A stretch of DNA of 64,000 nucleotides, taken from assembly GCA_963663165.1 (NCBI GenBank), contig OY760175.1, positions 4,512,001-4,576,000 on the forward strand. The letters run 5' to 3'. The translations under genes were made by a program, and so were the position numbers. Under the pieces are notes generated by a model. The model had not been told where the DNA came from, searched no databases, and saw nothing but the letters and a program-made list of their open reading frames with translations. Positions within the stretch are counted from its first letter, which is position 1. The number at the start of each line of letters is the position of its first letter. The DNA is from an uncultured Desulfospira sp. (GTDB lineage Bacteria > Desulfobacterota > Desulfobacteria > Desulfobacterales > Desulfobacteraceae). Shown here piece by piece: positions 20,288-23,200 of the stretch.

Positions 20288-23200
20288 TTAAAATGAAACA
20301 CTGGCACAGCCTCCGGCAGAGCAGGATGGCCCCTTGGTAATGGCGTCGGTCATTCCAAGGGAAACCCCCACGGTTTTACACCCATATGCAAATTTGCCGG
20401 ACGGAAACGACTTGACGGTATAGCTGACTGAACACGTAATTCCAAACCCGCTGCACGAGGCTTTCAGGCTGGCGGACCATTCGGGACTGGTGGGACAGCA
20501 TTTGGTCCCTTCAACCTTACCGATTTTTTTCAGTGAGGGCAGCGATACCCCTATGCATCCGTGTATACACGCTTCAATGGTTGTTTTCCATTCCATCTGC
20601 TTGGTGTCACAGTTACAGCAGCGGGTGAATTGAAGTTTTCCTGAAATTTTAATGCCCGCCGGTGCAATGGGGCCAAGGGGGATACAGCCAAGAGATCCTT
20701 TGACCCCGCCGGAAAAGCTGAATGTCCCAAAAGGATCAATCTTGTTGACGGGGTTGGCATCGGCATATAGATAATAGTTGATATCAACATCGGAAAAAGA
20801 GCCTGCACAGGACTTCCCGGTCAGGTGTTCGCCGGCATCGGGACGGTTTCCCATGCCAATGGGGTCGGTTTCCAGGTACCGGCCTGTGTCGGGGTCATAA
20901 TACCTGGCATAGTTGTAGTGCAGGCCCGATTCTTCATCAAAATACTGGCCCGGCAGCCGTAAATTGCTGACGATGGTCGACCCTTCATCAACACTGGCCT
21001 TTCCATATTCATCATAAACCGCTGACCACACAACGGCGCCGGCCATATCGGTTATTTTCACCGGTTTTTTGACGGTGTCGTTGTGGTAAAAATAATAGGC
21101 GGCGCCGATTTTGACAAACACCGGATCAATGGAGCCTTTGGCCCCGGGCACATACCCATAGGACTTAAGGATTTCTCCCTTATCGTTATATTCTGCCGTA
21201 AGGCCTTCATCGGCATAGCCAAAATAGGTTGTTTCATCGTCCACCGTTTTGCTGATACGCCGCCCAAAGGGATCATAGCTATAAGCGGCCATCACCCCTT
21301 GTAGATCCGAGGTGATCTGAACCAGCCGGTTTTCAAAATCATAGGTGTATTCAAAGGTCTCGGTACCGGTTGTTTTGGTGGCCATATTGCCGTCGGCATC
21401 ATAGGTGACGGTGGTATCGGCATAAGCCGTCAGCTGATCGTTATCATTATATTCCCAGTCCCCGGTGGTTCCGGTTTGTGACAGTCTGTTGCCCATGGGG
21501 TCAAGGGTATAGCTGATGGTTTCACCGGAAGGTCTGGTGGCGGATACCAGGTGGTACTGGTCATCATAATTATAAGCGGTGGTCCCGGTGGACGTAGAAA
21601 TTGAGGTGATATTGAGTTCCTGGTCATATTCAAAACTTTGATTCATGACCGGGTTTTCCCCCGGATCTTTGACGGCAATGCCCGTGGTCCGGTAGAAGGT
21701 GTCGTATTCAAATTCTTTTCGGGTGCCCCCGGGCAGCAGGACGGTGTTGGGGCTGGTCCACTCATAGTCGTTGTAGGAAATGGTGCCGGCTCCCGGAATG
21801 GTGATGGACTCAATTCTGTTGTCCTGGGTATAGGTATATCCATAAGCGGTGCCATCCGGGCCGGTATACCCTTTTTTTAATCCATTGCCGTAATAGTCGT
21901 ACTGATAGGTGGTTGAAAATGCCCCGTAATTAACCGTTTCACTGATTTTCCGATGGGATTGATCGTATTCGTAATGGACACTGATCTGTCCATCGGTGTA
22001 ATCCGTCAGCTGGCCGGCCTTATTATAGGAAAGGGTAAGGGTTTTTTCCGGGGTGCCGGCACTGCTGTTTTCATAATACCGGACTTTTACGGGTTTGTTG
22101 ACGGCATTATAGTCATATTCAGCCACCTGTCCCCGGGCGTTGGTTTTGCGGGCAAGATTGCCGTTGGCATCATATTCATAGGTCGTTGTCTTTTCATCGG
22201 GTCTGATTTCTGCCGTCATCCGGTTGTTCCGGTCATATTGGAACCGGGTCACATGGCCATTGGCGTCGGTTAAGCTGATCAGGTTCTTTCGGTCATCATA
22301 GGCGTACTCGATACGGCTGCCGTCGGGCCGGACCTCCGCGACTTTCCGGCCCACACCATTGTATTCGTAGGCTGTGGTCAGTCCGTTCTGGTCGGTCACC
22401 GCTGAGATACTGTCCATATCATTGTATTCGGTGAGCCGTTCACGCAGCGTTTCCCCCTCTTCGGACTTATAGATATCTTCTATTTTTCGTCCAAGGCTGT
22501 CATACACCTGATGCAGCAGCAGATGGGGATACCGGATCAGGGAGGGTTCCCCGGTGCTGCCGGCGGAACAGGAAGAACACCCCACCGCCGATTCTTCATC
22601 ATATTCGTATGTCACCTGTTTTCCCGCTGAATTGCTCTTGGAGATCAAACGGCCAAGCTTGTCATACTCATAGGTGAGATATCGTCCTTCAGGATCCGTA
22701 TCCTGAAGCACTTTGCCTTCAAAATTGAGCTCATAGACCGTGGTCTGACCTGAAGGATTGGTCTGCCGGATCAACCGGTCCTTACCATCAAAAGCGTACT
22801 CATATTCCCCTCCCATGGCATCGGTCTGTTTTATTTGGTTGCCCACGGCATCATATTCATAGGTGACGGTGTTCCCTAAGGGATCGGTTTCCTCAAGGAT
22901 GCTGCCGTCAACATCATACACATAGGTCCATGTGCCCCCCAGGGGATCTTCCCGGGTCAGGGGCATCCCTAAACTGTTATAGGTGTAACGGGTCGTATGG
23001 CCTTCCGGATCCGTAATGGAGGCCATGTTCCCGTATTCATCATATGTCATTACGGTGAGGCTCTCCAGGGTGTTGTCATCTCCCAGAATCCTTTGGGTCA
23101 GCTGGTTTCCGTCGCTGTCATAGGTGAACTGGTAGGTGATTTCATCATCTGTCCCCGGGGCCAGAATTCTCTGGGTGATATTGCCGTGATCATCGTATTC

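Follow-up and report, generated by a model that had tools for sequence, protein, structure and literature searches.

Most Rhs tips act as enzymes or as helical toxins of membranes, and they come with immunity genes. What is carried, then, by an Rhs protein whose tip resembles no enzyme and has no such gene beside it? The question is raised by two paralogous genes, B1 and B2, in the 64,000-nucleotide stretch analyzed here, which is called the window (uncultured Desulfospira sp., assembly GCA_963663165.1, contig OY760175.1, positions 4,512,001 to 4,576,000). Both genes encode giant Rhs/YD-shell proteins of a sulfate-reducing bacterium, and each is followed by a partner gene, A. The two C-terminal tips share 13 Cys, end in an aromatic residue and belong to a conserved family. 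Because the strands of the tip are patterned like those of membrane barrels, no antidote gene is adjacent and a sulfur bridge to the capsule is predicted, insertion into a membrane seems likelier than enzymatic action. The tip is tentatively read as a membrane-inserting, non-enzymatic cargo, which is possible rather than probable and still the best of the explanations weighed below. The parts of the two proteins are as follows, in window positions.

20288..36652, minus strand: B1, a 5454-aa Rhs/YD-shell protein with a signal-peptide-like N-terminus, 7 Gly-rich repeats, Ig/FN3 domains, YD shell, Rhs core and tip
20291..20725, minus strand: B1 tip, 145 aa, 13 Cys, predicted amphipathic β-meander of 7-8 strands, C-terminus ASVSF
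20498..20500, minus strand: tip Cys76 (B1 C5385), predicted from covariation in the member L041 to be the partner of the core-insert Cys
20735..20905, minus strand: B1 Rhs aspartyl-autoprotease core with R5250, D5263 (DPIG) and D5306 (DPFG); DP-to-DP spacing 43, elsewhere 21-24
20807..20809, minus strand: 14th Cys, B1 C5282, within the core insert
24212..24217, minus strand: putative N-terminal self-cleavage site between G4146 and S4147 in G-S-Y-V-D-L, by analogy to the cut between G723 and S724 of the protein BiTLP; the Ser is retained in the 9 relatives read
41594..57337, minus strand: B2, a 5247-aa B1 paralogue with 6 Gly-rich repeats
41597..42019, minus strand: B2 tip, 141 aa, 13 Cys, C-terminus GKIKW
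42029..42199, minus strand: B2 Rhs core with R5047/D5060/D5103; insert Cys C5079 at 42101-42103

The tip family and its cysteine scaffold

An initial annotation of the window had described the two tips (20288-20725 and 41594-42019, both on the minus strand), and its positions, lengths and ends were reproduced: the tips begin directly after DPFG, and 145 aa end in ASVSF and 141 aa in GKIKW. All 13 of the Cys that it saw in register align; across 1000 shuffles of the B2 tip, 5.7 do so on average and 10 at most. Calling the tips strongly diverged was too strong, since they are 39% identical overall, with 44/128 non-Cys columns identical. The rest of the chassis is 55-83% identical in 150-column blocks from B1 residue 1800 onward. 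No enzymatic-toxin motif had been visible, and none emerged here: 9/9 members gave 0 families in Pfam (E 1) and PHROGs (E 0.1), and no invariant column is of a catalytic type. The family has 0 invariant His, Asp, Glu, Lys or Arg columns, and His is scarce in the tips (0.5%). The B1 and B2 tips had no match in NCBIfam, and the tips had none among PDB sequences.

The tip family consists of eight lineages (B1, B2, B3, P0004, P0006, L015/L016, L017 and L041), three of which are in the host genome. The Cys pattern and the terminal aromatic residue, whose conservation the initial annotation had made decisive, are kept in these homologs. Eleven Cys columns are invariant, and F, W or Y is the last residue in 8/8 lineages with an intact end versus 5/31 other tips. 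The B1 orthologue P0003 has a different end after an apparent frameshift. In L041, the most distant member, Cys39 is displaced by a few columns and Cys76 is missing.

This Rhs tip family, which has no database match, is small. A search of 1.84 billion proteins gave 3 real members among 5 matches, a GTDB pattern search gave 2 among 14 candidates and a metagenome scan gave 1 among 135. Genome searches yielded 2/161 at the family level, 4/401 and later 7/401 at the order level (three weak or spurious) and 2/401 at the phylum level, the last with nothing new; L041 was reached through the neighborhood of gene A. When members were left out one at a time, each scored above 500/500 shuffles, L041 narrowly (8.4 vs 4.7 bits). 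No homologue was found in a single-tip search among 255-2000-aa proteins, in a metagenome scan with tip patterns (0/174 candidates) or on plasmids. Matches in the ESM Atlas were all below 0.9 with low recognition and were not used. Two candidates, P0005 and P0007, were rejected as repeat proteins without the Cys scaffold, and the G248 match was rejected as it lies inside a 94-aa shadow frame of a regulator gene. The G185 and G522 matches (E 0.004 and 0.008) were left outside the family count.

The family profile recognizes 0/31 other tips, including β-rich ones (best E 0.33). Another group of Gly-rich, β-like, Cys-containing tips (L049, L071, L126), with short open reading frames (ORFs) downstream, is likewise not recognized. 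A tree of 40 core stretches, without L017, which was too short, did not resolve a single origin of the tip family (4 changes), although one origin is still possible. A deep circular contig over the tip (run X7) was considered as a tandem array and rejected. Its ends lie on GATC/GANTC sites and nearby loose ends begin with GATC or GATCGATC, and for this reason it is regarded as a proximity-ligation artefact.

Strand patterning, disulfides and the core insert

In an AlphaFold2 prediction, the B1 tip is a meander of eight strands (pLDDT 55.6; one of the five models is good). When eight sequences were supplied, the meander had seven strands (pLDDT 65.7; five models 60-66), with residues 107-129 unmodelled. 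Both models are all-β, with strands of 10-17 residues. The models and the conservation agree with the proposal of a β-rich, non-enzymatic cargo with a conserved Cys scaffold and aromatic end. Foldseek returned no match at E 0.001 in the PDB or BFVD, and among β-pore-forming toxins (gasdermin, MACPF and aerolysin types), the matches were weak and partial (gasdermin Z 3.4-4.1, root-mean-square deviation (rmsd) about 6-7, about 70 residues aligned). On these models, the fold searches point to neither a known nor a new fold.

The alternation of residues along the strands, also proposed at the outset, is pronounced. The eight lineage tips hold 30 amphipathic 9-mers, where shuffles of the same composition average 7.4 and reach 15 at most. 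One rule was used for all sets, with C and G scored as hydrophobic. Per 100 aa, the tips have 2.57 such 9-mers, seven host barrels 2.17-2.75 and the soluble β regions of the A and B proteins 0.81-1.08. The Gly fraction of the polar face is 0.21 in the tips, 0.15-0.17 in host barrels and 0.02-0.06 in the soluble β regions of A and B. In both measures, the tips match host outer-membrane barrels. Six of eight segments have a hydrophobic face opposite a polar one (in five of them, mean Kyte-Doolittle 1.9-3.0 and 0-2% charged residues). In strands 1, 3, 5, 6 and 8, one face is hydrophobic and nearly charge-free, and the opposite face is rich in Gly, Ser, Lys and Glu. If the meander is right, the clamps CCxC, CCP and PFP would lie at one end together with both termini, and the Gly/Pro-rich hydrophobic loops and most long insertions would lie at the other. 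The β-signal is described as a terminal aromatic residue on the lipid-facing side of the last strand (10.1101/2021.08.24.457559). The suggested likeness of the tip end to this signal is partial: the aromatic residue itself is present in 8/8 lineages and is in register with the hydrophobic face in 5/8.

An extra Cys between the two DP motifs, absent from the initial annotation, is present in both proteins (B1 C5282, B2 C5079). It lies in an insert of 15-20 residues that separates the DP motifs in family cores. The DP-to-DP distance is 38-43 residues in the tip family and 21-24 in 30/31 other complete tips, the exception being L119 with a spacing of 42 and no Cys. This comparison comprised 51 rows, from which 4 cut tips and 7 without the second motif were dropped. 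Seven lineages have one insert Cys and tips with 13 or 15 Cys; in L041, which has 14 tip Cys, the insert Cys and tip Cys76 are both missing. As the two are absent together, a disulfide between the insert Cys and Cys76 that ties the tip to the shell or core is predicted. The total of tip and insert Cys is even in 8/8 lineages versus 7/31 other tips.

Other Cys also come and go in pairs. Cys88 and Cys101, which share the register of Cys91 and Cys98, were gained in two lineages, and one lineage gains a Cys pair beside Cys98 and Cys116. From this pattern we infer that the tip Cys form intramolecular disulfides. The disulfide stapling in the initial annotation is favored by these paired changes and weakened by the genome. 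DsbB and VKOR were not found in the 96.7% complete host genome, with the same search giving matches in control genomes, and a crude set of exported proteins shows no even-Cys bias (139/327 even, 0.425 vs 0.454 expected). Three signal-bearing DsbA-like proteins with CxxC and DsbD_TM are present. Many exported Rhs tips of this genome are Cys-rich although DsbB/VKOR were not found. Additionally, a DsbA-family match at G000:1684139-1684711 (L133; G000 is the host genome) reads through one in-frame TGA, possibly a selenocysteine codon.

Odd-Cys tips may conceivably pair with the Cys cluster ahead of the shell. In 24/31 other tips (L002-L126), the count of tip and loop Cys is odd, which hints at a general tether to another protein part; no partner was found. 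In a short-core group (L053, L060, L065, L074 and L077), a Cys in Y-x-Y-C accompanies a Cys at tip position 2, which is possibly a second kind of core-to-tip bond.

Gene order, selection and the chassis

The genes around B1 and B2 are the following.

16069..20268, minus strand: A1, partner of about 1399 aa with a signal peptide, a conserved unnamed N-domain, Ig domains and a dockerin-like end; it starts 19 nt past the B1 stop, the usual place of an immunity gene
37296..41570, minus strand: A2, partner gene, starting 23 nt past the B2 stop
57396..58298, minus strand: transglutaminase-like (TG) gene (PF01841), 58 nt upstream of B2; regular in these loci across the order

Gene A stands directly after B in 9/9 family loci with DNA context, at a gap of 19-83 nt and with no immunity ORF between them; such counts are given without a p-value because the relatives are not independent. 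After the 31 other tips, a short ORF (<=280 aa) comes next in 25, A in 1, and nothing was found within 400 nt in 5. Upstream of A, a TG gene occurs in 42/66 stretches (identified from a motif or by inspection; one doubtful case excluded) and an Rhs tip directly in 4/66, all four of this family. In the loci that were read, the flanks before B and after A hold no small ORF in common. Polymorphic Rhs toxins are marked by variable tips and cognate immunity genes. Here, 31 unrelated tips sit on the same kind of core, while the tip is conserved within this family, and the family has no cognate immunity gene. Orthologous tips are under purifying selection, with dN/dS of 0.31 (B2/L009), 0.034 (B3/L008) and 0.19 (L015/L016), and 0.14-0.25 in the shells.

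From its N-terminus, B runs through a signal-peptide-like start, 6-7 Gly-rich repeats, Ig/FN3 domains, a Cys cluster ending in x/S-x-V-x-L (the slash marks the cut), a YD shell of about 1115 residues and the Rhs core. It belongs to the Rhs proteins: B1 has the YD shell and a core with the Arg and the two Asp of DPxG intact (PF05593, TIGR03696 and PDB Rhs matches), and the closest PDB relatives of the shell are Rhs toxins. The x/S-x-V-x-L motif, a putative FN-plug self-cleavage site, occurs in 9 B proteins. The Gly-rich repeats (about 31100-36400 and 52400-57100, minus strand) are six or seven units of about 260 aa with GGAGHGG and GGGGAGG runs. They have no match in Pfam or NCBIfam and are, we presume, reminiscent of polyglycine-helix domains such as that of ALK.

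The host genome holds a third copy, B3 (G000:3556066-3567258), and elsewhere the same chassis with unrelated tips. Its region G000:1204104-1269208 (L004-L007) is a classic polymorphic locus on the B-type chassis: behind A, TG and B come orphan tip cassettes with short membrane ORFs, and insertion sequence elements interrupt the locus. The chassis is taken to be a toxin carrier because of its variable tips, the short downstream ORFs (<=280 aa at 25/31 other tips) and these orphan cassettes on the same genes. At another locus, L002 (G000:3663943-3682831), the order is TG-B-A, and the tip looks like a glycine-zipper helix pair.

The module of TG-like gene, gene A and giant Rhs B is widespread in the order (window 16069-20268, 37296-41570 and 57396-58298; loci L020-L048 and L079-L113). 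Gene A is present in 61/401 genomes of the order, usually arranged as TG-A, and its conserved N-domain of about 420 aa has no PDB match. The B1-A1 module (window 16069-36652) is absent at the equivalent place in a sister genome (L009), where an unrelated 574-aa gene comes after the A2 orthologue and a glutamate-synthase-like gene comes next. The module was inserted or lost as one block. A promoter scan of the gap between A2 and B1 gave nothing above chance on the coding strand. In both genomes, a PEP-CTERM-like gene follows A3 (G000:3552752-3553378 in L001; L008:13240-13731). The host genome has secretins, Omp85 proteins, of which two are BamA-size, and VipB-family genes.

Possible actions of the tip and its relation to known systems

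If the tip is a membrane-inserting cargo, Sec would export B, and cleavage would occur at DPFG. Internal disulfides would staple the 15 kDa tip, and a bond between the insert Cys and Cys76 would keep it on the shell until delivery or reduction. Once delivered, it may close into an inside-out barrel, or into a ring of such sheets, in a foreign membrane. Lipid would surround its uncharged faces, and its Gly/Ser-rich faces would be turned to a lumen. The hydrophobic Gly/Pro loops would enter first, with the Cys-clamped turns and the terminal aromatic residue left at the near surface. The target would most likely be a membrane to which the tip is not exposed on sister cells, namely that of a grazer or host among the eukaryotes or of a different species; the lack of an immunity gene would then be explained. 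A bolder version is unlikely. In it, the Rhs capsule would hold an outer-membrane-barrel mimic on a redox-sensitive leash to its own protease core, with a terminal strand that engages the β-barrel assembly machinery (BAM). The cargo would either be built into the outer membrane of a rival, to breach it or jam it without any immunity protein, or fix the 500-kDa protein to the membrane of its producer.

Several results weigh against insertion. The confidence of the models is moderate, with strand 7 unmodelled in the better one, strand 4 is weakly amphipathic, and the best VIA-align Z of 5.3-5.7 is not significant, with a soluble VapB/VapG barrel tying with membrane barrels. Aromatic residues make up 3-8% of the tips versus 14-19% of host barrel ends. 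There is no aromatic girdle, as F, W and Y account for 0.14 of the hydrophobic face versus 0.35 in host barrels, which are large and not eight-stranded; by the aromatic test, the tip is not a canonical outer-membrane protein (OMP). The lack of DsbB, VKOR and an even-Cys bias speaks against the staples. The tether is based on one covariation event, Cys parity is not strict because the shells hold unpaired Cys, and the L041 protein has 11 Cys ahead of its shell. A non-family tip, that of L002, is also followed by A without an immunity ORF, and the tips, being conserved, are unlike arms-race toxins. Additionally, two OMP-like tips tried in Escherichia coli were apparently not among three toxic ones, as far as the text indicates; the constructs were cytoplasmic (PMC13018210).

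Of the competing explanations, the strongest, although unlikely, is a domesticated Rhs protein. Its tip would be a soluble barrel that is rich in disulfides and lacks toxicity. Still tethered to the shell, the tip would serve as a cap or as the ligand-binding end of a surface adhesin pair of B and A, as in animal teneurins. This would suit the lack of an immunity ORF at 9/9 loci, the strong conservation of the B3 tip (dN/dS 0.034 vs 0.25 in its shell), the soluble VapB/VapG barrels among the best structural neighbors and the few aromatic residues. Three paralogues with differing N-terminal repeats are kept side by side, and the A protein of L015 ends in a choice-of-anchor U domain. It is harder to reconcile with autoprotease residues that are intact, with hydrophobic loops gathered at one end, and with Gly-rich polar faces that are like membrane barrels and unlike the soluble β domains of the same proteins. 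Quite improbable is that metal or sulfur is bound by the Cys (CCxC, CxxxC and CC motifs), so that the cargo would be a metal-binding or redox module of an anaerobe. The missing DsbB/VKOR, the lack of an even-Cys bias and the presence of DsbD_TM fit it, and it is opposed by paired Cys gains and losses on neighboring strands, scarce His (0.5%) and the three DsbA-like proteins with a signal and CxxC.

Two further explanations involve BAM. It is doubtful that the producer's own BAM folds the cleaved tip into its outer membrane, with the core disulfide holding the 500-kDa protein on the surface somewhat as in autotransporters. The aromatic end in 8/8 lineages, a last tip strand like host OMP ends (x-[YIATF]-x-F), long variable loops on one side as in OMP topology and two BamA-size Omp85 genes agree with such self-anchoring, and the covarying tether and the lack of an immunity gene both fit it. 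BAM would need the tip outside the shell and unfolded, a state that six or seven disulfides would impede; unrelated tips are also exported on this chassis, and the tether Cys pair is missing in L041. More doubtful is a poisoning of BAM, in which the last strand would mimic the β-signal and bind to strand 1 of BamA in a non-kin cell, so that the stapled sheet would jam barrel assembly. L-type-pyocin-like bacteriocins are not known to need an immunity gene, and the aromatic end is conserved. According to PMC13463100, L-type pyocins, which act with a C-terminal peptide, kill through β-augmentation of BamA strand 1. Nevertheless, the terminal aromatic residue is in register with the hydrophobic face in 5/8 lineages only, conservation extends beyond the last strand to all strands and 13 Cys, and in both models this strand belongs to the predicted sheet-forming elements. 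A C-terminal strand that mimics the β-signal would be a possible likeness to these pyocins, which differ in having a lectin fold with an unstructured tail; no common sequence with the tips was seen.

Membrane insertion, the favored reading, can also be set beside known systems. T6SS (type VI secretion system) Rhs effectors (RhsP 8h8a, RhsA 7q97, Tse5 8cp6, Tse15 and Tre23) share with B the YD shell and the bipartite DPxG core (best E 2e-75). Their DP-to-DP spacing is about 22, whereas B1 has 43, a signal-peptide-like start and no immunity ORF. These effectors have cognate immunity genes and are not known to carry a Sec signal. Small outer-membrane β-barrels (the OmpA/OmpX class) and Rhodococcus VapB/VapG share with the tips about eight alternating antiparallel strands, a terminal aromatic residue and polar-face Gly. 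The structural similarity is weak (Z 5.0-5.7, rmsd 3.3-4.8). Unlike small outer-membrane barrels, the tips have few aromatic residues and 13-15 Cys, are made as the tail of a 5000-aa protein and have no sequence match to them.

The nearest parallel comes from PMC13018210, on bacterial teneurin-like proteins (TLPs). OMP-like C-terminal tips were predicted there for TLPs of Paenibacillaceae and Desulfosudis oleivorans and left without a function. With B, such TLPs share a Sec-type signal, a YD shell, DPxG cleavage (predicted for B) and a tip near 15 kDa for which an OMP-like form is predicted. The likeness of the Paenibacillaceae tips to this family, judged by eye, lies in Gly-rich meanders of similar length, C-[VL]-E-A-G (C-F-E-A-C in L041), a C-x-x-x-x-W end and a core Cys (DPCG). 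They have about 5 tip Cys compared with 13-15 in the B family, whose tether Cys lies in a core insert of 15-20 residues and whose loci have gene A in place of a small downstream ORF. In D. oleivorans, the copy-1 TLP tip contains a single Cys, its last residue is E, and the immunity gene given for it is a membrane ORF of 105 aa. BiTLP of Bacillus inaquosorum (PDB 9ifo/9pt5) has two self-cleavage sites, G/S before the shell and DPxG after it, which have putative counterparts in B, and its shell matches that of B at E 1e-27. Its cleaved, membrane-active tip is held by the disulfide C719-C2216, whereas the tether of B is predicted only. That tip, of 92 aa, is predicted to contain a transmembrane segment, and its bond links it to the N-terminal FN-plug; the tip of B is all-β with a predicted tie to the C-terminal protease core. 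B1 has no NHL family match at E 0.1 in either half, and the 9ifo match is limited to the shell. B is not a TLP, as it has no NHL match; at best its tip works like an OMP-like TLP tip.

Among the entries viewed in the toxin table of PMC3482391, there are all-β Ntox families and none with the Cys pattern of the tip. In the literature searched, from which most subscription papers are absent, no description was found of the tip family, the core-insert tether or the TG/A/B system. What is new here is a tip family in which OMP-like patterning occurs together with a Cys scaffold, a core insert that covaries and the loss of an immunity gene. If the tip does engage BAM or insert into outer membranes, this would be a mode of Rhs action not met in that literature. 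The predicted bond between the core-insert Cys and Cys76 is specific and bears on how shells hold and release their cargo. The family also raises the question of how an anaerobe in which DsbB and VKOR were not found oxidizes its Cys-rich exported proteins. As a conserved, barrel-patterned tip that is free of immunity genes, it offers a small model for the OMP-like tips of PMC13018210.

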